A DNA stretch of 64,000 bases from contig CM097885.1 of assembly GCA_044892525.1 (NCBI GenBank), positions 2,234,001 through 2,298,000 on the forward strand. Reading direction: 5' to 3'. The stretch is from Schmidtea polychroa (lineage: Eukaryota). This document shows positions 11,152-61,510 of this stretch, in pieces. Each line of letters starts with the position of its first letter. Within the stretch, counting starts at the first letter, position 1. The position numbers and the translations under genes were made by a program. The notes beneath the pieces are model-generated. The model saw nothing but the letters and a program-made list of their open reading frames with translations. It had not been told where the DNA came from and did no database searches.

Positions 11152-12077
11152 CTTGATATTTCTTTTCTGTTTTATCTATCAATTAATTGCAAAATCAATA
11201 AATTTAATTATAATTTAATTAACAAGTTCAAAATTAATAAATCTAACTTCCTAAAATCCAAATGAAATTAATTAAATAGCAGCCAATCAATTCTCAAGGC
11301 CAAATAATAAATTTGAAGCGATAAAACAAATCAATTGCAATCAATAATAAATGTAATATATATAATGGAATTGTCAGGCTTGATAAAATTGATATTCAAT
11401 ATTCAATGCGACAACCGAGCGATCTCACGGATTCCCCCGATGCGGCAATTATTATCAATGATTACAACATTCCAGGGAGCTGCAATTATTATTATTATTT
11501 GCTGGTAACTTTCAAATAATTTCCAATTATAATTTGCAAGCATTACACAAATGGCTAAATATTATTTTAAATGCTCAATTTTACCCACTCAAATCCTCAT
11601 GCTAATAAATATCAATATTAATAACAATTTTATACAAATCATTGAATTGCTTTATAATTGATATTTCATAACATCGCATATAATTGTTACATAAAATGAA
11701 TTAATTAATTAATTATTGAATCAAATAGAAATTATATTAATAAATACAAAATTGAAGCATTAAAAAATTAAACATTTGAATAATTAAAAAATCCAATTAT
11801 ATAAACAAATATACAAAATATTATAATGGGAATATTTGAAAAGATTTCCTTATAAATTGCAAAGCACATTAACGCAAAACAAATATATTTCACTAAAACT
11901 AGAAATAATAATGCTTAAATTAAATCAGCAAATGTTTAACAAAATAAATCGTAATATTCTAGAAATATAAATGTTTTAATTTCGAATATATAATACATTA
12001 GTAAGGAGGGAAACCACGACAAAATTTGAGATAAAAATTGAAATTTGTTAACAGTATCGTATGAAACGGTTTGAATT

Positions 12078-13628
12078 TGCTGGGTTTAGTAGGCTGACTG
12101 GATAAGCTTACTTTATCCATGGAAACTATCTGGCATTCATTTACATAAAAGGAATCCCTGGCTTGGCAACGTTTTTTAATGTACTAAGTTCGGTGCTGAT
12201 AACAAAAAGTGTGTTTTACAATAAATACTTCTAATTCTTTGACTAATCTTGGGTTCCTAGACGACCGTCAGAAGGTGTGTGTCTGAATGTCTCATTCGCG
12301 TTCCACCTCTTACCTGTCACCACACAATCATCTACTGAACTTTGTTCTCTATATTATTCTGCTTATGTTTTCTTTGTTGTAGAACGAGTATAAAATTATT
12401 TCAAGCTAAAAGCTAATGTTGCAATCGACCAGTTTTGTAACTTTGCCAGTGAGACACGTTGGGTGAGATATTTTTACTCATGAAAGAGATGCGAATAAAG
12501 TTATCACGGGTTGATGCACTGGCGTGACAGTCTAATCGAGGAGAGTCGTACTCAGCGGCTGCTCATTAAAGAACAATCCGAGGCTTTACACAAGGTTTAT
12601 GTGAAAGCGACCCTCACAAAAAAGATTGTAACCATGCCGATCACGGAAGATAATGTATTCCCTCTACATCATCAGACAACGGCAATCAACCAGCCTTCGG
12701 AGAAATCCTCCATTAGCTGTGTCGATGCGCTTCTGTCGCCATCCACATCTGAGATATGTGTCACGGGGTTCAGTCAAGCGATCCCAAAACGCATGCCACT
12801 CACTGTAAAAGACGCACCCCTTATACCGCTGATCAAATCAAAACGCCGGCAACAAACTCGGTCGGAAAATAAGAAGCGGAAGATCCTGCAAACCGAGCGG
12901 GAAGCGAAATTAATCACCGAAACGGTGCAAGCCACTCTGCTGGAACCGAAGGTAGCTCCAACTCCGTCTCACCTTTTATTCCGAGTTATAACGCTGTCCA
13001 GTACCTCTTAGGAAGAAAACGCGAGGGATTTTTTCGATCTGGACAAACTTTTCGCCGGAGCCTCTCATTCTAAATTATGAGACTCCACGCGCATCCGAAA
13101 CTATGAACACTAAACTAAATGGAAAAATCTTTTATTATGTTCTCTATTTAATGGTGTTACTCTGAGGGGCGTATGACATAGATTCCATTGTTCTCTGTTT
13201 GTCTGTCATATATTATACACTCTTATATATAATTTGCATTCATGTAGGGTTATGTTTAAGATTTTTCTTTTATTTTGAATGTTTGAAGTGGAATGGGTCT
13301 TGTAATCATTTAGCTACTGGTAAAGTGGGAAAGCGCACTGCGATATTTTCAATAAGCGAGACAAGACGTAAGACCTTCTATTGACAGTCAGGAGGCGGGC
13401 AAGCCGAGATGTGATGAAGGACTAGTCCTAAGGCAGGGGCTCACCTGCTTCACTATATCCCGCCATCATGACACAGTACCAACATGATGTGAATCATGGG
13501 TGTCATGGTGAGAAAGTAATCATGGGGGTTCTGACTAGCGGCCGACAAAAAAGAGTTTGTTTAATTTGATTGACCTTCATCCCCTGGCAGCGAATGAATG
13601 TGTGTTAACCTAGTCGACTACCCAACAG
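12078..13628 (+). mobile_element. Probable LTR-like repeat (~1.55 kb) related to the solo LTRs at 15107 and 44227
   Basis: TGCTGGG start and CCCAACA end, similar length, and the same 3' conserved motif block (13365-13536). No clean TSD (aatt vs gctt), so the boundaries are uncertain. Confidence 0.4.
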
Positions 13629-15106
13629 CTTTGTCAAAATCTATATTAATATTCACCTCGTTATTATCCTTGATCCTTCCAATAAGTTTCACTGCGTTTT
13701 GAATATCTTAGACTAGTCTCGGATTTTTTCTTAAAATCCCTACCTAGAGCAAAAAATAGCATTTGAATGTGCTAAAACAGAAAATCGTTAATTAATTAAT
13801 TAATTGGCTAATAGAAAACCCAAGCCAATGGAGAACCCGAGAGATGAAGGAAACCCGAAATCGGTTAACATGAAAAGTAAACAAAATAATACAGCATGAT
13901 TAATGGAGACAAACAAAGTTAGGACTATTATGAAGAAATAGCAAAAGGAGCCAATTAATCATGACATGGTGCAAACAATGTTCAAGGAGCCGGTTGTCAA
14001 ATCATTGTCAGATAGGAGCAATAAGGTCAAAAACCGATTAATCAAAGTGATTATTCCAGTATAAAAGCAAAGTCGAAATTCAAAATAATCGGCATTTTGC
14101 CTCAGCTAGGGTTAGAAAAAGATTAGCTAGGAAAAGGAAAAGATGAATGAAAGAGATTAGGGAAAAAGGAAATATAGAATAGGAATACGAAAAGGTGAAA
14201 AGAAATCAAATCAAATTAAAAGGAAAACGTCGGTCAAGAGAACCTAAGGAATAAAAAGGTGAATATTATCTTTTGTCAAAGCATCAACACCGAGCGGAGA
14301 ATCGGTCAAACTTGTAAAACTTTGGTGATTGATTATCGATAGAAATATATTTTTGTGATTCAAATATACGTTGGGTAGTTTATTGTTTTGATTAAAAGGA
14401 CAAGAGGAGTCAGATGTTACCGACTTGAATTAGCTAAAACCCAACATTATTATTGTTATTATTTTCTTCAAAGTTATACAGTGAACGCTCTATATAAGCA
14501 ACATTCTTTATAAGCAACCTCTATACAGGCAACTTTTTTGAGTTCTGTATAACTGTTCTGTATAAGAAACGTATTTTTTTCGGAACTAAAATCAGCTGTC
14601 CACGACTAATTAATTTTAAATTGTAAAAAATTCTGTTATTGTAATATGTTTGTATTGCCAGTATTGAAGAATAGTTACGTGAATTCTTTTTTTTCTGTTA
14701 ATTAATAAATTAATATTTTTTTGTTTTCAATTCAGCCATAAAATATGAATCAGAAGAAAAAAAGACGTTCTATTTCGTTAAAAGATAAACTATTCCTTTT
14801 AAAGGACATTGAACATGGTAAAAAACAAAGGCCGTTTGTAACGAATATAAAGTTGCTAAATCTACAATAAGTAGAGTAAAAGAAAATAAAGAAAATTTAG
14901 AAAAAATATGTGCATCCAAAACCTATGTGAATCAGAATAAGATTAAGCGAATGAAGACAATAAAATATAGTGAAATCGATGATACAGTGTTTTCTTGGTT
15001 CTTGGAGCGGCGAAAATAAAACGATTTAGTTTCAAATGAAATGATTAAATTAAAGGCACTTGAAGTAAATAGGTTGAATAATGGTCCTGAAACATTTGTA
15101 GCAAAT

Positions 15107-16650
15107 TGTTGGGCTGAAGCCGAGAACTGAGAGTTTGTTTTAATCGATCGAAAATACCTAACACAAAAACCGCAAAGTTGGAAAATTTATGACGAAGGTT
15201 TAATTTAAAATAAATGAAATAAATTACATCACACATTAAGAACCAATAAACCCCGTATAATAGAATAAGAGATAAATAAATTTAACAAAAATTCAACACT
15301 TAAAAATTTAAATAGAAAAATAATAAAATATAAAATAGAATTAGTTGAAAATTATTTAAACAATATAAAAATTAAATCGTCAAAAATAATAAAATTAGTT
15401 AGCATTATATAAATTGTAAAGTTTATAGAATTAAATGGTTATTTAACTTATTAAATTTAAAGAATAAAAATGTTTAAATTAATAAAAATTAATATAACTC
15501 AAATTATTTAAATTATAAAATTTATAAAATTAAAATTAATAAAAATTAAATAAGAAATTAATTAAATTTATTGAATTAAAACAAATAAACAATTGCACAC
15601 ACTCATGCATGTATGCAAAACTAATTAAAAATTTCTCGCACTCTGATTGGATAGAGTGGCAGCAAATGCATGAAAAATTAGTATAAATACTGATCACAAA
15701 TTCATTTAAAACTACTACTTTTTCTCTAACATCAAAATTTAGTTGTAGACAGTGAAGCTCTCAGTTTTCGATTTTATGCCAACGAGGATTTGGTAATTTA
15801 TTTTTTATTGTTGTAGTAATTTTACGAGATGATTTAATTTAATATGCAATAAAATTTTTAGTTAAATTTTCTTTTGTTATTTTCTTTTAATTGTTTAATT
15901 TCATTTAGTTGTAGATATTAAATAATAATTTTTATTGTGTGCAATTTTTATACTAACTGATTACGAACGTTAGTACCGCTGAATTGAGATTCATCATATC
16001 ATGGTTTAAAGTACCTTCGGGATGCTCAGACTGGTGGGTATGCTGGTTTTTCAATCACGCAGCTGGATTGGGCCGGAATGTGGGGGCTTCCTCACGGGTC
16101 CTATCGCTGGAAGTACTGTGGTCAAATGTAGGTTAGGACTGAGAATACAGGCAGATCCCTGCTCAAATTTTTTGAAGTATAACGTAAATATTATGGGAAG
16201 CGTGGATTAACTTGAAAATAAGGGCCAATCCCTGCTCAAATTTTTCAAAGGATAATTTAGATATTGTAGGAAGTGTAGAACAATAATTATTAGCTGGAAA
16301 ATAAGGGTGGATCCCTGCACAAAATTTTATAAGAGAACAATTAGAAATACCCGTAATTGAGGACCAACAACGATCAAAAAGTAGCATACACAGTGAATAA
16401 TGACGTAAGACCTTCTATCGGCAGTCTAGAACCCGAAAAGAAAATACAATGGGGAGTAGTTTTAGTAATGGAGCTCACCTGCTCATTGTTTTTTCACCTT
16501 TGTGTACAGTACCAACATGGTCGTCACCATGGGTACACAAATGGTTTAAATTTCAATAGTCATGGAGGTGCTTAGGAAAGAGTCGAACGATTATGATTAC
16601 CCCTAACGCATTTTAAAATGTAAAAATGATACACCCCTAAGTAACCAACC
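15107..16650 (+). mobile_element. Solo LTR (~1.54 kb), Ty3/gypsy-type
   Basis: Starts TGTTGGG and ends AACCAACC (CA mutated). 4-bp TSD AAAT at 15103-15106 and 16651-16654. Removing it restores the transposase FVAN|DGW. Homologous end-to-end to 44227-45774. Contains ATTGG (CCAAT) and TATAAA boxes. Confidence 0.85.
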
Positions 16651-16972
16651 AAATGATGGATGGTTAATGAATTAAAAAAACGCCATGGTATACGGATTTT
16701 GTCTGTTTGGGGAGAGAGTATGTCTTGCAATGTGGAGCTAGCTAATTCGTTGAAAAGTAATTTCAAAATTATATTGCTGAAAATGGCTTTATGCCTGAAC
16801 AGATATATAATTGCGACGAAACTGGTCTCGTCTATAAAAGCTTGCCCAACATAACTAATGTTTCAGATTTTGAAAAATTCCCTGCTGAGAGAAAAGCAAT
16901 GAAGGAATGAGTAACAATTATGCCATGCGTAAGCGCTACAGGTACGCATAAGTTAGATTTGATGATGATAGG

Positions 16973-20171: not shown

Positions 20172-23100
20172 TATATTTTATTTATCACTCGCCGCTATTT
20201 ACTTCAAACTTTGATGATAAGATCTTTCATATACTGGATTTCATAGAGTAAAATAAAAACTCAAAATTATAAAATCGGAATTTCCTGACGTAATATTAAC
20301 AAAATCAACTTACAGTATTTTGGGATTATTTCGCTAGATATCTTACAAAACTAGATTTATTGTTTAATGAAAGTTCGAGTGATTATTTAGTTCTTTTCTT
20401 AAGGAGATAATTGTCCTTGACCTCAAGAGGTAATGATATCACAATTTAATCAATCCATTCTTTAAATTTCCAACTTTAATACGACTGATTCTTAAGAAAA
20501 TGGTCTTTCTAATAAAATTAATTATTTAAGCTGTAGCGCTAAATCAAAATTAACATATTATTATAATAAAGCAGTTTATTTATATAATACTGCATTTAAT
20601 ATTATCTTTATTTTTCTTGGCCTTCTTTTTGACTCGAACATTCCGGGTCGAGGCTTGCAGTACTTCTTCTGTACAAGTGTTATGGCTGGTATTCTGAAGA
20701 TCCGAGCTGCTAAAGCTGGGTACTTGTTCAACTTTAGCGTCAGTGTGGATTCAGTTCGTAATTCTATGATTTTCTGGGACTTTTTCAGGTAGTAATTTTG
20801 AGGTCTTTGATAATATTTTTGAAGATTGTAAGAATTCGGACTTAGAATTGCTTTTGTATGGATATATTGTAGAAGTTGATTTGGAAATACCGAAAGTAGG
20901 TAGATAGTAACCCACGGGAACAATTACCCCCCCCCCCCCCCCGGCGGGGGAGGGGGGGTTTGTTCCCAAATTTTTATTACGCAATTGTTCCCAACTCATT
21001 TTTTTGCTTTCAGGGAATTTTAGTCCAAATTTTTTTTTATCACATTATAGTGAGGGGGTCTCGATGGTCCTGGGATTTTCAATACAAAAAATTTTTTTCA
21101 ATACAAAAATCCGACTACCACTAAAAAAGCATGGATTTTTCTAGGTCAATTCAGGTGGGTCTCCTTGGTCCTGGGATTTTCAATACAAAAAAAATTTTTC
21201 AATACAAAAAGCTGGTCTACACTAAAAAAGCCAAGGATTTTTCAGACTATAGTGAGGTGAGTCTCCTTGGTCCTGAGAAATAGGTGGTCTACACTAAAAA
21301 CGTGGTAAATTTTTCAATTAAAGTAAATAATGGTCCAAATTTTAAAATTAAAGTAAATTATGGTTCTAAAAATTAAATTATAGTAAATTATGGCTCAAAT
21401 TTTTAAATTACAGTAAATTATGGTCAAACATTTTAAATTAAAAAAAACAATGGTTCAAATTTTTCAAATACAGTAAATTATGGGTCTAAAAATTAAATTA
21501 CAGTAAATAATGGTTCTAAAAATTAAATTAAAGTAAATTATGGTTCTAAAATATTAAATTACAGTAAATTATGGTCCAGATTTTTCAATTAAAGTAAATA
21601 ATGGTCCAAATTTTTAAATTAAAGTAAATTTAAGTTCTTAAAAATTAAATTACAGTAAATAATGGTCCAAATTTTTAAATTAAGTAATCAATGGTAAAAA
21701 ATTTTAAATAAGTAAATTAAAGTAAGATTTTAAAATTTAATTACAAAATAATAGAAGGTGTTTGAGAATTGAAATTTTTTAATGAAATTTTTTATGAAAT
21801 AATTTTTAAGTAATTTTTAATTGAAATTTTAATGAAATATTTTTCAATGGTAATTTTTAATGGAAATTTTTATGGAATAATTTTTTAAGTAATTTTTAAT
21901 GTAAATTTTTATGAAATATTTTTCAATGATAATTTTAGATGGAAATTTTTAAGATAATTTTTAATGAAAATTTTTATGAAATATTTATCAAAGACAAATT
22001 TTAATAATAATTCAACAACAAACCAACAACTTAGTACCAACAACCAGTAACTTACGAACATGTATTAACAACCAGATACCTACAACTAGTTACTAACAAC
22101 TAGTTACATGATACTAAGTAAATACAACCACCTAACAAGTACTAACAACCAAAAACAAGCAACCAACCAGGTACCAGTTACCAACTACTAAGTACCTACA
22201 ACCAACTAGTTACCTGATACCAAGTACTTACAACTAAATACTAACAACCAGTTACCTGATACCTAGTACTTACAACTAGTTACTAACAACCAAAAACAAG
22301 CAACCAACTAGGTACCAAGTACTAACAACCAAAAACAACTAGCTAACAACTAGATACCAAGTACCTACAACCACCTACCTATTAACTAGCTACCAAGTAC
22401 TAACAACTAACAACAACCAGGTACTAGATACCAAGTACTAACAACCTACAACAACTAGGTACTAAGCATTATCAACCAAGTACCTAAAACCACCTAACAA
22501 GTACATACAACCAACATCAACCAGGTACCTACAACTAGATACTAACAAACAGTTACCAAGTACCTACAACCACCTACCCATTAACTAGCTACAACCAGCT
22601 AACAACTAGCTACCAAGTACTAACAACCAACAACCAGCTAACAACTAACAACCAGATACCTACTACTTACAACCAACAACTAAGTACTAACAACCAGCTA
22701 ACAACTAGATACCAGGTACTAAGCATTATCAACCAAGTACCTACAACTAGATACTAACAACTAGATACCAAGTACCTACAACCATCTACCTATTAACTAG
22801 CTACTAGTTACTAACAACTAGATACCAAGTACATACAACCAACATCAACCAGGTACTAAGCATTATCAACCAAGTACTAACAACCAAGTACAAGATACCT
22901 AGTACTGTCAACTAGATACCAAACACTTACAACCAGATGACCACATGAAATTATTGGTTAAATATGAAAATAAGGGTTATAATTAGTTGTTTAGTAAATT
23001 ATGGTGTAAAATTAAGTAATAAAGCATAAATAGGTAAATTAAGGATAAGTAAATTAAAGTTAATTAAGGTCCAAATTTTAAAAATAAGTAATCAATGTTC

Positions 23101-23299
23101 TAAAAAATTAAATTAAAGTTAAATAAGTAAATTAAAGTAATAATTTTTAAAGAATTTAATTAAAGTAATAATTTTTAAATAAGTAATGTAATAAGTAAAT
23201 TAAAGTAAGATTTTTAAATTTATTATCAAAAGATTGAATAACCACCAACTTTTTTGAGAAATGTAATTTTTAATGAAAATTTAAATGGGAATTTTAATG

Positions 23300-23341
<42 letters not shown>

Positions 23342-23758
23342 TAATAATAATTCAACAGTTACCAACAATCGGTTACTAAATATTTTTAACTAAGTGCTAA
23401 CAAATAAGTACTTTCAACATGATACCACGTACTAACTCTCAAACAACCAGATACTTACAACGAACTACTAAATATTCTTCATTGTATTTTATGAAATGCT
23501 TTTTAAATTAATTTTTTATACATCTTCTATAATAATTTTAATTACAATCAGTAGAAAAACCTTTTCAAATTTAACAAAAAATGTTGATTTTCATCAAAAA
23601 AACCACAACTCATCACCACGTGAAATTCAAAATAATTTAAATGAAAGACTAATGAATTCTAATTTACAAAACATTCTTCTTTTAATTGATAACTTATTAT
23701 CGCAATGTAAAAATCGCATTCAATAAATACTTATTGTTGATCAGTTTTATTATATATA

Positions 23759-26700
23759 CTCTGAGTCTATCCGACAGGATGTTTTGACCCCCTAAGGGTA
23801 CAGGTCGTAAGGGTACTGGTCGTATGGGTATTAGTCGTAAGGGTACTGGTCGTAAGGGTACTGGTCGTAAAGGTACTAGTCGTAGGGGTATTGATCACTC
23901 TCAATCCCCACCTACTCATTAATTAGCTACCATGTACTAACCACTAGGTTTCAAACAACTAAATACTAAACACTTACAACCATGTACTAACAACCACCAT
24001 CAAAACCCATCGAGAAATTAACAAATATCAACCTACAACTATATAACAACAATCAGTAAACAACACTGTACCAACTACCAAATACAAAATATTCTTCATC
24101 GCATACACTATTTTCTTATCAAAATCTAAAAAGTCAACCAACTACTTACAACCAACAACTATGTACTAACAAATTGATCTTTAAAAGCAAATACTCTTCA
24201 CTTGAAAAATTGGATGAAAAATTATTTGAACTCAAGGCATCAATAACTAGGTAAAAATTGATTAAATTATTGTAAAAAATTTAAATTATTCAAAATAAAT
24301 ATCATAAAAATTTAATTAATGGACAAGAAAAAAATTCTAATCATCCAGTAAATAAAAAAAATATTGATCATTCAAGTTGAATCAACTAAGATAATAAATT
24401 AATAAGATAAGATCTAGTAGATAATTGATTTAGATTGAATAAATTAATTGAAATAAAATTAATTTTAAGTATTTTTTTAAGAGTAATACATGTACTCGAA
24501 TTGATTGACTGATTTCTCAATATATTCAAAAAATCAGTATAAATTCATTACAAATATTGGATGAAAAATTAATTGAACTCAAGACATCAATAACTTGGTA
24601 AAAATTGATTAAATAATTGTAAAAATTTAAAATTTTCAAAATAAATGTCATAAAAATGTAATTAATGGACAAGAAAGAACTTTAAATTCTAGTCATTGAT
24701 CATTCAAGTTAATATGAATCAACTAAGATAATAAATTAATAAGAATTTTGAAATAAGATCTAGTAGATAATTGATTTAGATTGAATAAATTAATTGAAAT
24801 AAAATTAATTTTAATTATTTTTTTAAAAGTAATACATGTACTCAAATTGATTGACTGATTTCTCAATATATTCAAAAAATCAGTATAAATTCATTACAAT
24901 TATCAAAGTCAGCAATCTACAATAAAAATAATTATCATTAAATTCCAAAAGAGACTAGATAACTAATGATAACATCTAACAAACCAGTAAATTCATTCAA
25001 ATGACAATAATTGGTATATCCAAGTGAATTCTCCAATAAAATCATCTAAAAAGCATCATTTTCCCCCTAAATATATCAATATTTAAAGATTGGTATTTTA
25101 ATGATAAATACTTGTTAAAGATCATATATTCTCCTCAAACTAATAAGATTCCTTAAAATCCCTTAAATGACTATATTTCAACCCTTAATTCATATTATTA
25201 CAAATAATTCATTAAAATCATCTAAAAAGCATCAAATTTCCCTGAAATAACTATCTTTAAAGATTATTATTTTATCGATAAATATCCTTAAAAGGTTATA
25301 TATTTACCTCAGACTAATAAGATTGCTTAAAATCCCCTTTAAATGACTTTAATTCCTATTATCACGAATATTTCCTTATAAAACATGTAAAATCATTAAC
25401 CCTAAAGAATTTATAAAATCTAATGACAAAACCGGTTATAATAAAATTTTTGTTAATCACTGTACTCGAAATATAAAATAAATATAACTGACTAGGTCCC
25501 ATTAAAAGATTAAATTTATCCATTCAATAAAATATATTTCTTCAAATGATCATTTTTACCGATATTCAACCGATTTAATTACTAATTAAAATCAAGATTT
25601 CTTCCAATAAAGATCAATTTTATTTAGTTGTTGTCGATGTTTTAAGTCCATATTTCTAAACTTTTGTCATTCTCCGCCTAAATAAAGATAAAAATAAATT
25701 AAAGTTGATATCAATCCCATTTATCTGTAAAGTTTTCATTGTCAAAACCAAGTAAATCGATCATTATCTCTACTTAATAAAACATAAGTCTAATTAATAT
25801 ACAATGGATTAATCACAACCTAATAAAACGATATAATTATTATTGATACATAACTGACTAATTGACATTTCCCTTAAAACAATGATATTTTACCAACATC
25901 ACCATTAAAAAAAAAATCATATATTCCCATCTTAACCCATCCTTCATTAAATTCAATCGACTATGTCTTCCTTAAAAGATTATATTTTCCCATCTTATCC
26001 GATCTCTTATTAAAGTCAATCGACTATATCTCCCTTACAATGATATATTCCCATCTTAACTCATCTCTCATTAAATTTAACCGACTATATCCCCCCCCCC
26101 ATAAAAACATATATTCCCATCTCTCATTAAATCTAATCGATAATATCCCATCTTATCCGATCTCTCAGCAAATATTTCTACCCTTTTAAACATCTATCCG
26201 ATTATATCCCTTAATTTCCCTAAAGATTCCACCCACTTGAACCCTTTAATATATATCAATCCTCTTAATATCCTTAGAGAACTTCAAAAAGTATGAATTT
26301 TCATAAACTGTTAAAGACACCAGGCATTCTTCCATTGAAATAATTTAGAAGCTAAATAATAAGAGCCCACTAACCAATCAAAATCATGGAATGGCAGGGG
26401 AAAAAATATATTACGTTGCGGTATTTTAAAATTAAAATTTATTTTAAAAACACATTTTGACGCTAAAGGCGACTTATGTAACAGACATAATAAACTGATT
26501 ATTTTCTACAAATATTTATCATCAAATACCTAACTGGAGATGATATATATTGTTTGATCATAATTCTTCATCGATTCAACCAATCATTTTCAAGCAATAA
26601 CAACAAACTAAATTTCTGTATATCCTACAAGTAAATTTAAAGTCCTTGATAAAGTTAACTGGTTTCTTAGCTTATGTTTTTTAAAGTGCATCAATGTGTA

Positions 26701-27477
26701 AATATTCTTAGAAAATTATTGAAAAATTATTTAGTCAAATATATTACAAAGTTATCATCAAAAATCACTTAATTATTAACCTAATTGTCAATGAAATTAA
26801 TTTTTATTTAAAAACTATTCAATAAAATACAACTAATTATCAAGAAATTAATTAAATTTGTCACCATTAAAACTTTTAATCAGTCAACATGAAATTCTTA
26901 GAAAATTATTCAATATCCTCATAAAAATTTATCCTACCCCTTGATTATTGTACAAACTCTAATTATTAACCTCATTAAAAATAATTTTTATTTAAAATTA
27001 AAAATACATCCAATTATCAAGAAATTAATTAAATTTATCTTAGAACTAACTTTAAATTATTAAATATTCATCCAATAAACATGAAATTTGCAAAAATGTT
27101 AGAAATCTACAAAAATAATAGAAATTCACCAAAAAACGATAAAAATTCACAAAAATGATAGAAATCCACAAAAATTATGGAAATTCATGAAAATGATGGA
27201 AATCCACAAAATAGATAGAAAAGCACAAAAATGATAGAAAATTACAAAAATTGATGGAAATTCACAAAAAAACGATAAAAATTCATAAAAATGATAGAAA
27301 TTTACTTGAATAAAACCATCAACTCTAAAAATTATCAATACCTTAAACAACAAATTTGCCTAAATAACCATTCAAATAAAAGTATTAAAAGTACCCTTGC
27401 GACATGTTGAATGTGAGTAGTACCCTTGTGAGCAATACCCATAGGGGGACAGAATATTTTGTCGGATAAAGTCAGAG
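23759..27477. mobile_element. Nested 3.7-kb non-coding TIR element in the left arm
   Basis: Imperfect ~42-bp TIRs: CTCTGAGTCTATCCGACAGGATGTTTTGACCCCCTAAGGGTA versus reverse complement CTCTGACTTTATCCGACAAAATATTCTGTCCCCCTATGGGTA. Flanked by TATATA; 15-bp GGTCGTAAGGGTACT subterminal repeats. Confidence 0.75.
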
Positions 27478-28083
27478 TATATATTAATTAACTCATTCTT
27501 CATTGAATCAGTAAAATTATCATAAATTTCGATAAAAATTCTAAAGTGGTAAGCAATGAAAAGAGAAATATTCTTTAAACTTTGATAAAATTAACAATGA
27601 AGGTGGTAAGAATCTTCATTAAAATGAGGAAATTACTCGATGATAAATTCAAATGGGTGAAAATAATTGGTAGAATAATTCATTAATGGAGGTAAATACT
27701 GAGAATGGGCATAGATAACATGAAGGTTGATAAGAATGGAAATATATTAATTGAATTTATTTAAAATTATTTCATAAAATTAACACTTTAATAAAAAAAA
27801 ATCTTAAAACAAATATTTGTGGGAATGTTTTAAGTGAATAATAAATCAAAATCGGCGGAATATAAGTAGAAAATCGGGGTGGGGGTTATAGGCGAATAAT
27901 TAATGGAAATTCGAGGGGATATAAGTGAATAATTAATGGAGAATCGGGGGAATATAGGAGATTAAATAGTGGGATAATGAGAATCGGTGGAATATAAGTG
28001 AGAAGGATATGTAATTTAAACTATTTTATTACGTAACAACGCGCGTCTATTTTATTACATAGCAAGCTGTGAATGGTATTTTA

Positions 28084-28982: not shown

Positions 28983-29588
28983 TAAAATACCATTCACAGC
29001 TTGTTATGTAATAAAATAGTCGCGCGTTGTTACGTAATAAAATAGTTTAAATTACATATCCTTCTCACTTATATTCCACCGATTCTCATTATCCCACTAT
29101 TTAATCTCCTATATTCCCCCGATTCTCCATTAATTATTCACTTATATCCCCTCGAATTTCCATTAATTATTCGCCTATAACCCCCACCCCGATTTTCTAC
29201 TTATATTCCGCCGATTTTGATTTATTATTCACTTAAAACATTCCCACAAATATTTGTTTTAAGATTTTTTTTTATTAAAGTGTTAATTTTATGAAATAAT
29301 TTTAAATAAATTCAATTAATATATTTCCATTCTTATCAACCTTCATGTTATCTATGCCCATTCTCAGTATTTACCTCCATTAATGAATTATTCTACCAAT
29401 TATTTTCACCCATTTGGATTTATCATCGAGTAATTTCCTCATTTTAATGAAGATTCTTACCACCTTCATTGTTAATTTTATCAAAGTTTAAAGAATATTT
29501 CTCTTTTCATTGCTTACCACTTTAGAATTTTTATCGAAATTTATGATAATTTTACTGATTCAATGAAGAATGAGTTAATTAATATATA

Positions 29589-32500
29589 CTCTGACTTTAT
29601 CCGACAAAATATTCTGTCCCCCTATGGGTATTGCTCACAAGGGTACTACTCACATTCAACATGTCGCAAGGGTACTTTTAATACTTTTATTTGAATGGTT
29701 ATTTAGGCAAATTTGTTGTTTAAGGTATTGATAATTTTTAGAGTTGATGGTTTTATTCAAGTAAATTTCTATCATTTTTATGAATTTTTATCGTTTTTTT
29801 GTGAATTTCCATCAATTTTTGTAATTTTCTATCATTTTTGTGCTTTTCTATCTATTTTGTGGATTTCCATCATTTTCATGAATTTCCATAATTTTTGTGG
29901 ATTTCTATCATTTTTGTGAATTTTTATCGTTTTTTGGTGAATTTCTATTATTTTTGTAGATTTCTAACATTTTTGCAAATTTCATGTTTATTGGATGAAT
30001 ATTTAATAATTTAAAGTTAGTTCTAAGATAAATTTAATTAATTTCTTGATAATTGGATGTATTTTTAATTTTAAATAAAAATTATTTTTAATGAGGTTAA
30101 TAATTAGAGTTTGTACAATAATCAAGGGGTAGGATAAATTTTTATGAGGATATTGAATAATTTTCTAAGAATTTCATGTTGACTGATTAAAAGTTTTAAT
30201 GGTGACAAATTTAATTAATTTCTTGATAATTAGTTGTATTTTATTGAATAGTTTTTAAATAAAAATTAATTTCATTGACAATTAGGTTAATAATTAAGTG
30301 ATTTTTGATGATAACTTTGTAATATATTTGACTAAATAATTTTTCAATAATTTTCTAAGAATATTTACACATTGATGCACTTTAAAAAACATAAGCTAAG
30401 AAACCAGTTAACTTTATCAAGGACTTTAAATTTACTTGTAGGATATACAGAAATTTAGTTTGTTGTTATTGCTTGAAAATGATTGGTTGAATCGATGAAG
30501 AATTATGATCAAACAATATATATCATCTCCAGTTAGGTATTTGATGATAAATATTTGTAGAAAATAATCAGTTTATTATGTCTGTTACATAAGTCGCCTT
30601 TAGCGTCAAAATGTGTTTTTAAAATAAATTTTAATTTTAAAATACCGCAACGTAATATATTTTTTCCCCTGCCATTCCATGATTTTGATTGGTTAGTGGG
30701 CTCTTATTATTTAGCTTCTAAATTATTTCAATGGAAGAATGCCTGGTGTCTTTAACAGTTTATGAAAATTCATACTTTTTGAAGTTCTCTAAGGATATTA
30801 AGAGGATTGATATATATTAAAGGGTTCAAGTGGGTGGAATCTTTAGGGAAATTAAGGGATATAATCGGATAGATGTTTAAAAGGGTAGAAATATTTGCTG
30901 AGAGATCGGATAAGATGGGATATTATCGATTAGATTTAATGAGAGATGGGAATATATGTTTTTATGGGGGGGGGATATAGTCGGTTAAATTTAATGAGAG
31001 ATGAGTTAAGATGGGAATATATCATTGTAAGGGAGATATAGTCGATTGACTTTAATAAGAGATCGGATAAGATGGGAAAATATAATCTTTTAAGGAAGAC
31101 ATAGTCGATTGAATTTAATGAAGGATGGGTTAAGATGGGAATATATGATTTTTTTTTAATGGTGATGTTGGTAAAATATCATTGTTTTAAGGGAAATGTC
31201 AATTAGTCAGTTATGTATCAATAATAATTATATCGTTTTATTAGGTTGTGATTAATCCATTGTATATTAATTAGACTTATGTTTTATTAAGTAGAGATAA
31301 TGATCGATTTACTTGGTTTTGACAATGAAAACTTTACAGATAAATGGGATTGATATCAACTTTAATTTATTTTTATCTTTATTTAGGCGGAGAATGACAA
31401 AAGTTTAGAAATATGGACTTAAAACATCGACAACAACTAAATAAAATTGATCTTTATTGGAAGAAATCTTGATTTTAATTAGTAATTAAATCGGTTGAAT
31501 ATCGGTAAAAATGATCATTTGAAGAAATATATTTTATTGAATGGATAAATTTAATCTTTTAATGGGACCTAGTCAGTTATATTTATTTTATATTTCGAGT
31601 ACAGTGATTAACAAAAATTTTATTATAACCGGTTTTGTCATTAGATTTTATAAATTCTTTAGGGTTAATGATTTTACATGTTTTATAAGGAAATATTCGT
31701 GATAATAGGAATTAAAGTCATTTAAAGGGGATTTTAAGCAATCTTATTAGTCTGAGGTAAATATATAACCTTTTAAGGATATTTATCGATAAAATAATAA
31801 TCTTTAAAGATAGTTATTTCAGGGAAATTTGATGCTTTTTAGATGATTTTAATGAATTATTTGTAATAATATGAATTAAGGGTTGAAATATAGTCATTTA
31901 AGGGATTTTAAGGAATCTTATTAGTTTGAGGAGAATATATGATCTTTAACAAGTATTTATCATTAAAATACCAATCTTTAAATATTGATATATTTAGGGG
32001 GAAAATGATGCTTTTTAGATGATTTTATTGGAGAATTCACTTGGATATACCAATTATTGTCATTTGAATGAATTTACTGGTTTGTTAGATGTTATCATTA
32101 GTTATCTAGTCTCTTTTGGAATTTAATGATAATTATTTTTATTGTAGATTGCTGACTTTGATAATTGTAATGAATTTATACTGATTTTTTGAATATATTG
32201 AGAAATCAGTCAATCAATTTGAGTACATGTATTACTTTTAAAAAAATAATTAAAATTAATTTTATTTCAATTAATTTATTCAATCTAAATCAATTATCTA
32301 CTAGATCTTATTTCAAAATTCTTATTAATTTATTATCTTAGTTGATTCATATTAACTTGAATGATCAATGACTAGAATTTAAAGTTCTTTCTTGTCCATT
32401 AATTACATTTTTATGACATTTATTTTGAAAATTTTAAATTTTTACAATTATTTAATCAATTTTTACCAAGTTATTGATGTCTTGAGTTCAATTAATTTTT

Positions 32501-33305
32501 CATCCAATAATTGTAATGAATTTATACTGATTTTTTGAATATATTGAGAAATCAGTCAATCAATTCGAGTACATGTATTACTCTTAAAAAAATACTTAAA
32601 ATTAATTTTATTTCAATTAATTTATTCAATCTAAATCAATTATCTACTATATCTTATCTTATTAATTTATTATCTTAGTTGATTCAACTTGAATGATCAA
32701 TATTTTTTTTATTTACTGGATGATTAGAATTTTTTTCTTGTCCATTAATTAAATTTTTATGATATTTATTTTGAATAATTTAAATTTTTTACAATAATTT
32801 AATCAATTTTTACCTAGTTATTGATGCCTTGAGTTCAAATAATTTTTCATCCAATTTTTCAAGTGAAGAGTATTTGCTTTTAAAGATCAATTTGTTAGTA
32901 CATAGTTGTTGGTTGTAAGTAGTTGGTTGACTTTTTAGATTTTGATAAGAAAATAGTGTATGCGATGAAGAATATTTTGTATTTGGTAGTTGGTACAGTG
33001 TTGTTTACTGATTGTTGTTATATAGTTGTAGGTTGATATTTGTTAATTTCTCGATGGGTTTTGATGGTGGTTGTTAGTACATGGTTGTAAGTGTTTAGTA
33101 TTTAGTTGTTTGAAACCTAGTGGTTAGTACATGGTAGCTAATTAATGAGTAGGTGGGGATTGAGAGTGATCAATACCCCTACGACTAGTACCTTTACGAC
33201 CAGTACCCTTACGACCAGTACCCTTACGACTAATACCCATACGACCAGTACCCTTACGACCTGTACCCTTAGGGGGTCAAAACATCCTGTCGGATAGACT
33301 CAGAG
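29589..33305. mobile_element. Mirror copy of the nested 3.7-kb TIR element in the right arm
   Basis: Reverse complement of 23759-27477, with the same TA-flanked CTCTGA...TCAGAG ends. Confidence 0.75.
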
Positions 33306-33722
33306 TATATATAATAAAACTGATCAACAATAAGTATTTATTGAATGCGATTTTTACATTGCGATAATAAGTTATCAATTAAAAGAAGAATGTTTTGTAA
33401 ATTAGAATTCATTAGTCTTTCATTTAAATTATTTTGAATTTCACGTGGTGATGAGTTGTGGTTTTTTTGATGAAAATCAACATTTTTTGTTAAATTTGAA
33501 AAGGTTTTTCTACTGATTGTAATTAAAATTATTATAGAAGATGTATAAAAAATTAATTTAAAAAGCATTTCATAAAATACAATGAAGAATATTTAGTAGT
33601 TCGTTGTAAGTATCTGGTTGTTTGAGAGTTAGTACGTGGTATCATGTTGAAAGTACTTATTTGTTAGCACTTAGTTAAAAATATTTAGTAACCGATTGTT
33701 GGTAACTGTTGAATTATTATTA

Positions 33723-33761
<39 letters not shown>

Positions 33762-36700
33762 CATTAAAATTTCCATTTAAATTTTCATTAAAAATTACAT
33801 TTCTCAAAAAAGTTGGTGGTTATTCAATCTTTTGATAATAAATTTAAAAATCTTACTTTAATTTACTTATTACATTACTTATTTAAAAATTATTACTTTA
33901 ATTAAATTCTTTAAAAATTATTACTTTAATTTACTTATTTAACTTTAATTTAATTTTTTAGAACATTGATTACTTATTTTTAAAATTTGGACCTTAATTA
34001 ACTTTAATTTACTTATCCTTAATTTACCTATTTATGCTTTATTACTTAATTTTACACCATAATTTACTAAACAACTAATTATAACCCTTATTTTCATATT
34101 TAACCAATAATTTCATGTGGTCATCTGGTTGTAAGTGTTTGGTATCTAGTTGACAGTACTAGGTATCTTGTACTTGGTTGTTAGTACTTGGTTGATAATG
34201 CTTAGTACCTGGTTGATGTTGGTTGTATGTACTTGGTATCTAGTTTTTAGTAACTAGTAGCTAGTTAATAGGTAGATGGTTGTAGGTACTTGGTATCTAG
34301 TTGTTAGTATCTAGTTGTAGGTACTTGGTTGATAATGCTTAGTACCTGGTATCTAGTTGTTAGCTGGTTGTTAGTACTTAGTTGTTGGTTGTAAGTAGTA
34401 GGTATCTGGTTGTTAGTTGTTAGCTGGTTGTTGGTTGTTAGTACTTGGTAGCTAGTTGTTAGCTGGTTGTAGCTAGTTAATGGGTAGGTGGTTGTAGGTA
34501 CTTGGTAACTGTTTGTTAGTATCTAGTTGTAGGTACCTGGTTGATGTTGGTTGTATGTACTTGTTAGGTGGTTTTAGGTACTTGGTTGATAATGCTTAGT
34601 ACCTAGTTGTTGTAGGTTGTTAGTACTTGGTATCTAGTACCTGGTTGTTGTTAGTTGTTAGTACTTGGTAGCTAGTTAATAGGTAGGTGGTTGTAGGTAC
34701 TTGGTATCTAGTTGTTAGCTAGTTGTTTTTGGTTGTTAGTACTTGGTACCTAGTTGGTTGCTTGTTTTTGGTTGTTAGTAACTAGTTGTAAGTACTAGGT
34801 ATCAGGTAACTGGTTGTTAGTATTTAGTTGTAAGTACTTGGTATCAGGTAACTAGTTGGTTGTAGGTACTTAGTAGTTGGTAACTGGTACCTGGTTGGTT
34901 GCTTGTTTTTGGTTGTTAGTACTTGTTAGGTGGTTGTATTTACTTAGTATCATGTAACTAGTTGTTAGTAACTAGTTGTAGGTATCTGGTTGTTAATACA
35001 TGTTCGTAAGTTACTGGTTGTTGGTACTAAGTTGTTGGTTTGTTGTTGAATTATTATTAAAATTTGTCTTTGATAAATATTTCATAAAAATTTCCATCTA
35101 AAATTATCATTGAAAAATATTTCATAAAAATTTACATTAAAAATTACTTAAAAAATTATTCCATAAAAATTTCCATTAAAAATTACCATTGAAAAATATT
35201 TCATTAAAATTTCAATTAAAAATTACTTAAAAATTATTTCATAAAAAATTTCATTAAAAAATTTCAATTCTCAAACACCTTCTATTATTTTGTAATTAAA
35301 TTTTAAAATCTTACTTTAATTTACTTATTTAAAATTTTTTACCATTGATTACTTAATTTAAAAATTATTACTTTAATTTACTTATTTAAAATTTTTTACC
35401 ATTGATTACTTAATTTAAAAATTTGGACCATAATTTACTGTAATTTAATATTTTAGAACCATAATTTACTTTAATTTAATTTTTAGAACCATTATTTACT
35501 GTAATTTAATTTTTAGACCCATAATTTACTGTATTTGAAAAATTTGAACCATTGTTTTTTTAATTTAAAATGTTTGACCATAATTTACTGTAATTTAAAA
35601 ATTTGAGCCATAATTTACTATAATTTAATTTTTAGAACCATAATTTACTTTAATTTTAAAATTTGGACCATTATTTACTTTAATTGAAAAATTTACCACG
35701 TTTTTAGTGTAGACCACCTATTTCTCAGGACCAAGGAGACCCCCCTCACTATAGTGTGAAAATTCCATGCTTTTTTAGTGGTAGTCGGATTTTTGTATAG
35801 AAAAAATTTTATTTGTATTGAAAATCCCAGGTCCATCGAGACCCCCTTATTTCTCAGGACCAAGGAGACTCACCTCACTATAGTCTGAAAAATCCTTGGC
35901 TTTTTTAGTGTAGACCAGCTTTTTGTATTGAAAATATCCTGAGACCTTAAATTACCATGCTTTTTTAGTGTAGACCAGCTTTTTGTATTGAAAAATTTTT
36001 TTTGTATTGAAAATCCCAGGACCAAGGAGACCCACCTGAATTGACCTAGAAAAATCCATGCTTTTTTAGTGGTAGTCGGATTTTTGTATTGAAAAAAATT
36101 TTTTGTATTGAAAATCCCAGGACCATCGAGACCCCCTCACTATAGTGTGATAAAAAAAAATTTGGACTAAAATTCCCTGAAAGCAAAAAAATGAGTTGGG
36201 AACAATCGCGTAATAAAAATTTGGGAACAAACCCCCCCCCCCCCCCCCCGGGGGGGTAATTGTTCCCGTGGGCTACTATCTACCTACTACCGAAAGAACT
36301 TCATAACTTATTGGACGATTTTCAAATAGCTAGAGAAAAGGTGTGAGTATCTAAAGTGGAGAAATAATTGTTGACATATTATTCAAAGCAGAATTTTGTA
36401 GTGCATTGGCGTTTACCGAAAATATTTCTTTTCTTAGTGATGCAGTAGTAATATTTTTTCGAAATCATATTTTCTTCGGTGTGTGATAGTTTTCCATTTA
36501 CAAATGTTTTATTATTTTTGTTGTTTGCTAGAGTATCTCTCAATGTTAAAGATTTTTGTTCTTTATAAATTGTAAGTCCAATGCATTTAAGTTCTTTCAG
36601 GATTTTGAATTCGAGTAAAATAGAAGTAGATATTCTAACATACAGGTTCTACAAAAATCCAGCTCACAAAGAAATATTTATGCACCAAATTTTAGCGTTT

Positions 36701-42294: not shown

Positions 42295-43305
<1,011 letters not shown>

Positions 43306-43499: not shown

Positions 43500-43905
43500 A
43501 AGTCATTGTTCTAAAAAATAGATGATGAGTCGTGTGATAAGTCATTATCTTTGTTCTAAAAATAAATGATTCATTGTCTTTGTTTAAATGTCTTTGTTTA
43601 AAAAGGATGAGTCATCGTCTTTGTTTAAAAACGACGAGTCATCAGATCAGTGATCGGATCAATGATCGGATCAAAAATGTTACTAAAAATAGATCCAAAA
43701 TGTTACTAAAATAGTTGTCTTTGTCTTTGTTACTAAAAATAGAATGACCTGGACCTAGTTACTAAAATAGAATGACCTTGATCTAGTTACTAAAAATAGA
43801 ATGACCTTGATGAGGCATCGATGAGTCACGTGACCCTGATGAGTTATCTATGAGTCATCGCGGGAGGGGGTTTGTGATGAGTCATGGCGCACACTTCCCT
43901 CTACT
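43500..43905. mobile_element. Possible orphan Polinton-like terminus with a subterminal repeat array
   Basis: Modular GATGAGTCAT and GTTACTAAAAATAGAATGACC repeats end at ...CTTCCCTCTACT (reverse complement AGTAGAGGGAAG), the same CTACT end as the giant element. No partner end found. Confidence 0.35.
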
Positions 43906-44226: not shown

Positions 44227-45774
44227 TGTTGGGCTGAAACCGAGAACTGAGAGTTTGTTTTAATCGATCGAAAATACCTAACACAAAAACCGCAAAGTTG
44301 AAAAAATTTATAACCAAGGTTTAATATAAAATAAATAAAATAAATTTCATCACACATTAAGAGTCAATAAACCCCGTATAATAGAATAAAGAGATAAATA
44401 AATTTAACACTTAAAAATTTCTATAGAAAAATAATAAAATGTAAATAGAATTAGTTGAAAATTATTTAAATAATATAAAAAAATAATCGTCAAAATAATA
44501 AAATTAGTTAGCATTATGTAAATTGTAAAATTTATAGAATTAAATGGTTATGTAACTTATTAAATTTAAAGATAAAAATGTTTAAATTAATAAAAATTAA
44601 TATAACTCAAATTATTTAAATTATAAAATTTATAAAATTAAAATTAATAAAAATTAAATAATTAATTAATTAAATTAATGAAATTAAAAACAGATAAATG
44701 ATTGCATACACTCATGTATGAAAAATTAAGTCAAAATTTCTCGCACTCTGATTGGATAGAGTGACAGCGCATGCATGAATGCGCATGCAAAATCAGTATA
44801 AATACTGATCACAAATTCATTTGGAAAACTTGTTTTTCAGCACCACAATGTAATTTGCAGACAGTAAAGCTCTCAGTTTTCGATTTTATGCCATCGTGGA
44901 TTTGGTAATTTATTTTTATTCTTATTGTAATTTTTACGAAGTGTTTTAATTAATAAATTTTATATGCAATTAATGTCTCAGTTAAATTTTCTTTTGTTGT
45001 CCTTTTTAATTGTTTAATTTCATTTAGTTTTATTAGGTTCAACTCTTACATTAGTTAATTTTGACTAGTAGTTATAGTGTAACTGGAATCCAGTAGGCCA
45101 CAGCATTAAGGGACACTAGTTGTTCCTATTGCGAGTAGGTCAGCTGGCTTTGCAGATTCACACGGATTGATCGGACCATAACGAGGAGGCTTCTCCCCTG
45201 GTCCGTCTCCGTAAGTATTTTCTAGTCGGAAATAGGTTAAGACTAAGAATACAGGCAGATCCCTGCTCAAATTTTTTGAAGTACAATTTAAATATTATGG
45301 GAAGCGTGGATTAACTTGGAAATAAGGGCCAATCCCTGCTCAAAATTTTTGCGAGATAGGTTAAATATTCATAAATATCAAGGAAAATACCTAGCAACAT
45401 TTATTAATAAAAAATTAAGCGCGCATCCCTGCACAAAACTTTGAAAGGAAACAATAGAAAACATCTAGAAATGAGGACCATAGCCGAATGAGATAGAAAA
45501 GTAGAAATATAAAATGATCGATGACGTAAGACCTTCTATCGGCCGTCTAGAACCCGAAGAGAAAATACAATGGGGAGTAGTTTTAGCAATAGAGCTCACC
45601 TGCTCATTGTTTTTTTCGCCTTTGTGTACAGTACCAACATGGTCGTCGCCATGGGTACACAAATGGTTTAAAGTACAATAGTCATGGAGGTGCTTAGGAA
45701 AGAGTCGAGGGAATACCTATGATTACCCCTAACGTATTTAAAATTTAAAATGACATACCCCTAAGTAACCAGCA
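44227..45774 (+). mobile_element. Solo LTR (~1.55 kb), same family as 15107-16650
   Basis: TGTTGGG...CCAGCA with 4-bp TSD GTAC (44223-44226 and 45775-45778). Confidence 0.9.
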
Positions 45775-48769: not shown

Positions 48770-49922
48770 ATGTTTGCAAGCGTATGGGAAATGATGAAGA
48801 GAAATAAATTTGAATTTGATAATGAAATCAGCAGTGAATTGATATGCAGAATTTGCAAATGTTTAATGATAAAGGCTTGCAATGCTCCTTGCGGTTGCCG
48901 CTTTTGTTCTGATTGCATTGAGCATTATTTGGATGGAAACGATAAATTCTGTCCAGGAGCAGCAAAACATTGCGGAAAGAAAATGATAAATTTTGCAAAT
49001 GATATTGTAGTAGACATTAATGCTAACAGTCGGATTTCAGAAGTGATAGTGAAATGCCCTATGCAAAATTGTCAATTCAAAGATGAATTAGAGGTGATGG
49101 AGAGCCACATGAGAACATGCAACAAGCAGCCAATTAGATGCCCAATCAATAGAATTGGATGTGAAATAAATGAGGTGGAGAAGGACGAAATGAAAGTCCA
49201 TCTCAATGAGAACAATGAATGCCATAGCAAATTATTGATTGATCATATCAGTAATTTATACAATGAGATGCAAGCATTGAGAGATGAGAATGTCAAATTG
49301 CGTGAGGAAATTATCAATATCAATGTACAATTTTATTTGTAATTAATTTAATTGATATTTGTGATTGTAGGTGAAATTGTGCAATATTGAAAGGAAACAG
49401 ACGGAGAACAGAGGGGAAATAGAAGACTCGAATGAGGAAATGGTGGTAGTGAAGATATTGGAGATGGAGACAAATATTGAATCAATCAATCAAGTTTTAA
49501 TAAATTACGGATTTTGTGAATGGCAAATTGATAAATATTCACAACGAAAAAGATTTGAATATATTTACAGCAAGCCATTTTATTCTGGTCCAACCGGTTA
49601 CAAAATGTGTTTGGGGCTGATGATTGGGGGTAATGGGGATGCAATATGGGTTGGTTTCTGTTTAATGCGTGGGGAAAATGATGAGCAATTGGATTGGCCG
49701 TTCAAACAAACGGTGAAAATCGATGTTATCGATCAGACAAATGACAACATTTATAAGAGTCAGACAATAAAATTTTTAGAATGCCCTGATCATGTCGGAT
49801 GGAGGAAACCGTCAAAGTACAGAAATAATACAATTCGCATTTATTATGGTGATGACTCATTCAATGAATTTGCATCCAGAAATAATAAATTGCTGCTCAG
49901 GTGCAAAATTGAAAATTTATGA
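48770..49922 (+). CDS. TRAF-like protein (RING, TRAF zinc finger, coiled coil, MATH); exons 48770-49324 and 49371-49922
   Basis: CRICKC..APCGCRFCSDC RING-like; VKCPMQNC..HMRTC zinc finger; YSKPFYSGPTGYKMCL and MRGENDEQLDWPF MATH motifs. 46-nt GT-AG intron in phase. Confidence 0.9.
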
Positions 49923-52113: not shown

Positions 52114-52169
52114 GCTATTCCTGAAAATCAATATTATCAACAAATATATTACACATTATTAGTAGGTAG

Positions 52170-52867
52170 CTAGGAGCACATCTGATTGACCGTTTGTTGC
52201 ATGTCCTCATGTAGCTTTCCATCATACCCAACTCAGTTTTGAATTCACAATTTTGCATTGGGCATTTAACAATGACCTCAGATACTCTTAAATTGACTGG
52301 ATGATCCACAGAAACATTTTTAGTGAAAAGAATCGTTTGAACTTGACAATATTTTGCTGCTCCTGGACAGAATTTATCTTTTCCATCCAAATAATGCTCA
52401 ATGCAATCAGAACAAAAGCGGCAACCGCAAGGAGCATTGCAAGCCTTTATCATTAAACATTTGCAAATTCTGCATATCAATTCACTGCTGATTTTTCATC
52501 TTATTGGCTGCTTGTTGCATATTCTCATGTGGCTCTCCATCACCTCTAATTCATCTTTGAATTGACAATTTTGCATAGGGCATTTCACTATCACTTCTGA
52601 AATCCGACTGTTAGCATTAATGTCTACTACAATATCATTTGCAAAATTTATCAATTTCTTTCCACAATGTTTTGCTGCTCCTGGACAGAATTTATCCGTT
52701 CCATCCAAAAAATGCTCAATGCAATCAGAACAAAAGCGGCAACCGCAAGGAGCATTGCAAGCCTTTATCATTAAACATTTGCAAATTCTGCATATCAATT
52801 CACTGCTGATTTCATTATCAAATTCAAATTTATTTCTCTTCATCATTTCCCATACGCTTGCAAACAT
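52170..52867 (-). pseudogene. Truncated inverted TRAF-like copy with a tandemly repeated RING/zinc-finger segment
   Basis: 52496-52867 is nearly identical to 48770-49140. It is followed by a second RING/ZnF fragment at 52170-52495. No MATH domain; it ends in the pogo fragment. Confidence 0.8.
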
Positions 52868-61150: not shown

Positions 61151-61510
61151 TGTGTTCTTTGAATTCCTTTGATTGTAGGAAGAAATGTACTATTCATCGT
61201 GACATTGTGATTGCTGGTTTCTGCTTCTAAAAGATCTCTTGAATTTATTAAAAAGAGAGCTTGAAAACTATAAATCAGTAATATATCGATGTTTGTTGAT
61301 ACTCACAAATCTTCGGCACTGTCTTTTTCAAATTCACTTGAAAAAGGCAGTGCCGAAAATTCGTGAATATCAAAAACATCGATATATTACTGATTTATGG
61401 TCCTCAAGCTCTTTTAATTAAATACAATGGAAAAAAAATCAGTGGTAAAATTGGAAAAAAACGTTCTTATAATATCGAAATTTTTGATAATTTTGTTAAT
61501 TTTAGATAAA

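Follow-up and report, generated by a model that had tools for sequence, protein, structure and literature searches.

A covarying sense-strand RNA motif common to LTR families of Schmidtea polychroa and its candidate role as a genomic-RNA leader signal

In a 64,000-nucleotide stretch of the Schmidtea polychroa genome (contig CM097885.1, positions 2,234,001 to 2,298,000; hereafter the window), a set of short invariant blocks recurs in LTR-like repeats, separated by sequence that can hardly be aligned. This raises the question of whether the blocks frame an RNA structure that is under selection and, if so, what such a structure does for the elements that carry it. A sequence-only reading of the window had proposed a covarying, multi-stem RNA near the LTR 3′ end, present in three copies and a decayed fourth.

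Copies of the motif and their fold

The copies, with the two main domains of copy A, are as follows:
13365–13536, + strand: copy A of the structured motif (recognised by blocks, covariance model and anchored helices)
13408–13459, + strand: domain 2 of copy A (12-bp helix 13408–13419/13448–13459, invariant internal loop GACTAG/GCTCACCTG and 4-bp hairpin)
13464–13510, + strand: domain 3 of copy A (11-bp outer stem, AGTACCAA/G loop, 6-bp inner stem)
16402–16573, + strand: copy B (closing helix 16406–16422 with 16559–16574, domain 2 at 16442–16493, domain 3 at 16499–16541)
45523–45695, + strand: copy C (blocks, model, helices)
46315–46455, + strand: copy D, divergent or decayed (four anchors at model spacing, block 1 missing)

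The named blocks were found where they had been reported, with GACGTAAGACC at 13365, 16402 and 45523 and GCTCACCTG at 13439, 16473, 45594 and 46368, and the outer stem, the inner stem and the 8x1 loop AGTACCAA/G are all as described. A two-anchor pattern, GA(C/G)TAGT...GCTCACCTG, occurs four times in the window and not once in 100 shuffles. Anchor spacing is nearly constant over the four copies: 19/19/19/18 nt from GA(C/G)TAG to GCTCACCTG, 36/35/36/35 nt from GCTCACCTG to A(A/G)TACCAA and 20/20/20/21 nt from A(A/G)TACCAA to CATGGGT. A covariance model was built from copies A, B and C only, and the whole window was scanned without filters. Copy D, which was held out, was recovered at 46315–46455 with E=4.9e-5; the next match has E=0.41, and there is therefore no fifth copy in the window. 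Copy D lacks the first block and keeps its stems only partly, and the four copies represent only two well-folding independent lineages, A on one side and B/C on the other.

Four gap-free helices were counted outward from the anchors. In domain 2, a 12-bp helix and a 4-bp hairpin flank the GA(C/G)UAG/GCUCACCUG loop; in domain 3, a 9-bp outer and a 6-bp inner stem enclose the AGUACCAA/G loop. When copy A was compared with copy B over these 31 anchored pair positions, 11 were unchanged, 3 were changed on one side, 15 were changed on both sides and 2 were broken. Every position with both bases changed (15/15) pairs in both copies, giving a binomial probability of 4.5e-7 at a pairing chance of 0.38, a figure that comes from one pair of lineages with helix registers picked by inspection and is not an R-scape test. 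With the partner strand slid by 1–3 nt as a control, 0–4 two-sided changes and 22–23 broken pairs were obtained. Pairing is thus kept despite sequence divergence, as had been claimed from the letters. The earlier list of stems needs amending in two respects. Its outer and inner stems stand, and it had missed the 12-bp helix and the small hairpin around GCTCACCTG, which hold 8 of the 15 double changes; the 12-bp helix of copy A is paired at 11 of 12 positions, with 7 double changes relative to B. The additional stem listed for copy A, AGTCAGGA/TTCTGACT, does occur in the minimum-energy fold of A, but it is absent from B and C and competes with the closing helix that the copies share.

The helices of A, B and C contain 13 G-U pairs against a single A-C, and the alignment folds at −34.3 kcal/mol on the + strand versus −22.2 on the − strand. 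The G-U excess and the stronger fold together indicate that the functional strand is the sense strand of the LTR. The first and last blocks are joined by a long closing helix, which is almost invariant and for that reason lends no covariation support. Internal loops and junctions are invariant and the apical loops vary freely; being variable and non-palindromic, the apical loops argue against kissing-loop dimerisation.

Individual copies fold to different degrees. For copy B the model fold is also the free minimum-energy fold (z-score −2.26). Copy A is 3.1 kcal/mol more stable in its free fold than in the model fold (z-score −0.32), with pair probabilities of at most 0.05 in domain 2 and of 0.62–1.0 in domain 3, while the model fold is worse than the free fold by 2.8 kcal/mol in copy C and by 17 kcal/mol in copy D. 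An alternative register of domain 3, in which ACC of the loop pairs with GGU, has a probability of 0.1–0.5 in copies A to C. Taken together, these data make it very probable that the motif is a selected RNA structure of the sense strand.

LTR setting and spread across families

The repeats around the copies were delimited as follows:
15107–16650, + strand: solo LTR B (TGTTGG...TAACCAACC, target duplication AAAT, inside a host-repeat remnant)
44227–45774, + strand: solo LTR C (TGTTGG...TAACCAGCA, target duplication GTAC)
13537–13627, + strand: tail of copy A up to the probable LTR end CCCAACA (alignment with a paralogous contig stops at 13625)
46456–46533, + strand: tail of copy D up to the probable LTR end GACTACTGAACA (from its likeness to the tail of A)

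Contigs of four public runs (X1, X5, X6 and X9) were matched to positions 11900–16800 at 80% likeness; contig depth is not copy number, and the joints come from 15 of 123 rows and the variants from 40 of 809. LTR B and LTR C are 80% identical over 1.55 kb. The termini of LTR C are TGTTGG...CCAGCA, and those of LTR B are TGTTGG...CCAACC, the last base differing from the TG...CA type. Among the joints listed, related copies of the host repeat without LTR B show a joint from 15104 to 16670 in at least three X1 contigs and at least one X6 contig. B and C were identified as solo LTRs by their TG..CA-type ends and 4-bp target duplications and, for B, also by these empty-site contigs. A 5-bp target duplication was considered for both and fits worse than 4 bp, as it needs a CA-less end in both LTRs and one mismatch in C. 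We take the repeat remnant that hosts LTR B to be a pogo/Tigger-like transposase, and we assume that a 4-bp target duplication suggests Ty3/gypsy.

For the other two copies, the LTR probably ends at 13627 (A) and at 46533 (D). The similarity between the tails of A and D was reached in 0 of 500 shuffles, and that between the tails of A and B in 42 of 500. A search of the window for the 5′ LTR ends of A and D found none, nor was a target duplication found for D, and the flanks of the four copies showed neither an internal region nor a primer site or gag. From CATGGGT to the LTR end there are 132, 122, 124 and 109 nt, and the motif itself ends about 80–90 nt before the LTR end. In summary, the LTR status of B and C, the strong covariation and the + strand polarity support the proposal of a selected RNA structure close to the 3′ end of the LTR.

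Between B and C, identity is 165/174 in the motif, 301/420 in the leader just upstream and 520/556 (93.5%) in U3. As U3 is also 93.5% identical, the identity of the motif between these two copies shows little by itself. Immediately before the motif, the leader of B and C contains about three degenerate repeats of ~73 nt (16140–16348 and 45248–45449), and other copies, among the contig joints listed, lack ~210 nt of the leader at this degenerate-repeat region. A deep X6 contig joins 16649 head-to-tail to 15106 with ~12 letters between; this joint is absent among those listed for the three other runs. The contig may reflect either tandem LTRs or a two-LTR junction.

Evidence that the motif extends beyond these LTRs comes from the contigs. 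Summed depth entering the bin of copy A rises from 369 to 81,659 in X1, from 206 to 28,053 in X6, from 44 to 830 in X5 and from 0 to 35 in X9. Depth peaks at the motif in all four runs, and the deepest bin of LTR B is 16328–16491 in each of them. Among the joints listed, two X1 contigs carry the first 25-nt block of B, then differing linkers, and then the sequence of A from 13417 or 13419. These two contigs with other linkers imply that the module occurs in two or more further families; it is common to families whose upstream LTR sequence cannot be aligned.

Several features next to copy A were observed in addition. Directly after it lies a repeat of very high depth (13628–14446), which ends in CCCAACA and contains no motif copy; within it, an inverted repeat links 13628–13648 to about 14262–14283. 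A 170-aa open frame (12499–13011, +) lies in the low-copy stretch that precedes copy A; no Pfam family, homologue or Atlas match was found for it. X5 contigs span about 12220–13670 and not 11900–12063, and the frame is possibly a captured fragment inside the LTR of A.

Predicted transcripts and candidate functions

The following transcript features were predicted from the sequence:
15682–15687, + strand: predicted TATA box of LTR B (CCAAT-like box upstream; counterpart in C at 44797)
15793–15973, + strand: predicted intron of LTR B (GTAATT...TACTAAC...TTAG, with AATAAA at 15848)
44797–45036, + strand: predicted TATA box (44797) and intron (44905–45036, AATAAA at 44952) of LTR C
45870–46280, + strand: predicted TATA box (45870) and intron (45969–46280, two AATAAA inside) upstream of copy D

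Copies B, C and D thus share a layout of predicted TATA box, ~100-nt exon and GT-AG intron, all upstream of the motif. The predicted introns of B, C and D contain 1, 1 and 2 AATAAA against 0.24, 0.09 and 0.20 expected, a comparison made post hoc, and the intronic signals of B and C fall in different alignment columns. From the intron end to the LTR end, B, C and D share no AATAAA; the single one, at 45406, occurs in C only. With the predicted poly(A) signal inside the first intron, R would be short and the motif would lie in U5, the R/U5 border being itself a prediction; the motif probably adjoins the primer site. One contig of X5, a run that we guess may be RNA, ends exactly at 15792, the predicted donor, a weak hint in favour of the predicted intron. 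The 5′ edge of the motif is formed by an invariant donor-like block, GAC|GTAAGA, which D lacks. The 3′ part of the predicted intron of D also has a 92% duplicate, AATAAA included (46168–46273 and 47314–47422).

This position favours a U5 leader role, with packaging, export, translation and ribozyme activity all still candidates. The candidate that we rank first, tentatively and at a little under an even chance, is a leader signal of genomic RNA for packaging and priming. Transcription would start after the predicted TATA box and poly(A) would be added after the intronic signal, so that genomic RNA would carry the motif at its 5′ end alone, directly ahead of the primer-binding site. The Gag/reverse-transcriptase machinery of the element would read the fold, choose the RNA for packaging and begin tRNA-primed copying. 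If the upstream donor or the GAC|GTAAGA block were used for splicing, messenger forms would lose the motif, as with retroviral psi, and the invariant loops GA[C/G]UAG/GCUCACCUG and AGUACCAA/G may form a surface for contact with protein or tRNA. Recognition by the element's own proteins or by the primer tRNA is suggested by a fold that is fixed relative to the primer site while the upstream LTR is replaced, and by invariant loops carried on exchangeable stems. UACCAAC may be complementary to a tRNA D-loop, and CUCACCUG may act as a U1 mimic.

Precedents for such a signal are known. According to the portion of PMC4974528 that was available, Ty1 and Ty3 have packaging and priming cis signals in or beside their LTRs, with extra tRNA-arm contacts. 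The motif resembles these domains, and retroviral psi/U5, in being a structured RNA in or next to the LTR and near the primer site, at a 5′ place in genomic RNA that is predicted here. It differs from the Ty1/Ty3 and retroviral leaders in that it has no sequence or Rfam similarity to them, lies wholly inside a long predicted U5 (~780 nt) and not downstream of the primer site and, so far as the same portion describes those leaders, is a module found across unalignable families, without a palindromic apical loop. In foamy viruses, a splice donor precedes the poly(A) signal within the LTR (PMC3694450), an arrangement that is only predicted here; in contrast to that system, the motif belongs to an invertebrate retrotransposon and lies far downstream of the predicted donor.

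A translation element, that is, an IRES or ribosome shunt taking ribosomes to gag past a long AUG-rich leader, is unlikely. Between the predicted intron and the LTR end there are 16 AUGs in B and 12 in C, and a purine at −3 combined with G at +4 marks the invariant CATGG sites (inner site in 4/4 copies, last site in 3/3), which open ORFs of 6–15 codons. Conserved internal loops in a multi-way junction, moreover, resemble IRES domains. However, pairing constrains the −3 base, families differ in the lengths and frames of their uORFs, the position of the motif is tied to the LTR end, and splicing could bypass the leader.

More doubtful still is an RNA-processing or export element, which would govern the donor-like block, suppress 5′ polyadenylation or export unspliced RNA in the manner of a CTE. 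In its favour, conservation begins abruptly at GAC|GTAAGA, with the TAAG of this block base-paired within the closing helix in copies B and C, and a predicted intron in the LTR means that unspliced RNA needs export. Against it, D keeps the core without the donor-like block, the motif of B comes 550 nt after the predicted poly(A) signal, the likeness of AAGAC to a CTE is only putative, and no Rfam match was found. The foamy-virus case, in which structure controls U1 access, does offer a precedent in the part of PMC3694450 available.

A self-cleaving ribozyme has a slim chance at best. Such an RNA would belong to a new class or be a variant akin to twister-sister/lantern, and by cleaving at GCUC|AC it would define RNA ends just as hammerheads define them in the LTRs of retrozymes. 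The long strand GCUCAC, part of the internal loop that is the most invariant element, carries, in 4/4 copies, 5/6 of the lantern residues G7 C8 U9 C10|A11 A12, the equivalents of C8-G40 and U9-A39 can pair, and the layout of stem, loop, stem and hairpin is alike, all judged from the available part of PMC11620745. The absence of any AATAAA common to the LTRs beyond the predicted intron, and the X6 contig linking LTR end head-to-tail with LTR start, point the same way. These points are opposed by the guanine at the scissile phosphate (twister sister G5; LINE-1 G36 by our own mapping), which is A in 4/4 copies, by the C37 position, which is G in 3/4, both compared with the same partial source, and by the bulge needed in the stem beyond the loop. 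In addition, target duplications and TG..CA ends suggest ordinary integration, and the 5-nt match is likely due to chance, several cores having been compared. A more specific form, in which the GA(C/G)UAG/GCUCACCUG loop would dock with the AGUACCAA/G loop in a new class or twister-sister offshoot cutting the genomic RNA at one and the same site in both LTRs, is similarly improbable. Were such a docked-loop ribozyme real, it would take the place of ordinary end formation in animal LTR retrotransposons of high copy number.

Known ribozyme cores were compared directly. The twister-sister/lantern core was rejected, as its short strand requires G-C-N-A-G in the accessible text of PMC11620745 and reads ACUAG in A and AGUAG in B, C and D. 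By that account, the lantern ribozymes of LINE-1 and OR4K15 share with the motif the long strand GCUCA of the internal loop and the variable hairpin cap, with C-G and U-A cross pairs that can form in the motif as well; they differ in having GC(U/C/A)AG as the short strand and the phosphate-contacting G that the motif lacks, and the loop of the motif is larger and lies within a 170-nt multi-domain fold. The hammerhead, whose core is CUGANGA plus GAAA at a three-way junction, was likewise rejected: of the 8 combinations of strand and copy, CUGANGA occurs in one, the minus strand of D, where it falls outside the core. Its absence from the + strand of all copies and the − strand of A, B and C, together with the lack of an Rfam match, agrees with the sequence-only reading, which had seen no hammerhead core. 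Plant LTR retrozymes, as far as PMC4918200 was available, resemble the motif as conserved structured RNA in an LTR and carry hammerheads, unlike the motif. HDV-like, hairpin, twister, pistol and hatchet cores, compared by eye, were rejected on order or missing residues.

The absence of any RNA function, with the blocks serving as DNA-level factor sites or as an antisense splice donor and the stems made neutrally by palindrome-correcting template switches, is very improbable, for although the antisense reading of the invariant 10-mer gives a strong donor, CAG|GTGAGC, in 4/4 copies (13439, 16473, 45594, 46368; minus strand), although TGACGTAA and the E-box CACCTG are presumed factor sites and although template switching can homogenise inverted repeats, this leaves unexplained the 13:1 G-U polarity, the fixed asymmetric loops that interrupt the stems, the four separate helices and the 1-nt spacing.

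Relation to catalogued RNAs and other features of the window

The structured RNA appears real, of an expected kind and uncatalogued. The Rfam search suggested by the earlier reading was run over the whole window with Rfam 15 and gave no family at gathering. The best match, with HDV, hairpin, twister, pistol, hatchet, IRES and psi families included, has E=0.53, far below gathering, and no ribozyme family appeared down to E=5–10; ARAGORN found no tRNA. Pattern matches elsewhere numbered 0, 4 and 9 in viral contigs, 12 in metagenomes and 11 in prokaryote genomes, and of these 36/36 were rescored with the model, with a best E=0.47; no homologue from beyond this genome emerged. No description of the motif was found in the literature searched or in the supplements of PMC11410931 (one scanned PDF aside), and the available parts of PMC11410931, PMC8532177 and PMC6431247, on planarian LTR elements, mention no such RNA. 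The LTR families that carry the motif may already have names (e.g. Grohme et al. 2018, Repbase).

Comparison with the LTR models for Metaviridae (Benachenhou et al. 2013, PMC3601003, available in part) shows that TGTTGGG...CCAACA fits att motifs of the Mag A/Sire type (TGTTRKR, YAACA), a fit to att motifs that assigns no clade. The same portion of that work reports residual stem-loop conservation in long R regions and nothing like the motif. Most of the structured cis signals mapped so far in LTR retrotransposons come from yeast Ty elements and vertebrate retroviruses, and the motif would add an invertebrate case that spans several unalignable families. It provides a defined RNA of about 170–250 nt with which to ask how LTR elements mark their genomic RNA, and a sensitive probe for solo LTRs across families.

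Elsewhere in the window, a gypsy-type element (53264–57828, −) contains gag and pol frames free of interruptions (427 and 1054 aa) and is bounded by two identical LTRs of 115 bp, which are unlike the motif LTRs; no motif copy was found in it. From its identical LTRs it is judged a young insertion, and its ends, AGTTATGT...TAACT, agree with att motifs of the Zam type (PMC3601003, Table 3). A 6.9-kb inverted duplication (21157–28083 / 28983–35844, 98.6% identity) has a spacer of ~900 bp and is rich in tandem repeats. Duplicated TRAF-like genes or fragments, with RING and MATH, lie at 48737–49922, 52115–52900 and 61418–62941. Repeat arrays containing TGAGTCA, which we take to be AP-1-like sites, occur at 58464–58696 (25-nt units) and 43520–43890. 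A 449-bp tandem duplication (99%) at 42295–43300 was also observed, with TTA microsatellites and a CCAAT-like box resembling the one in LTRs B and C.
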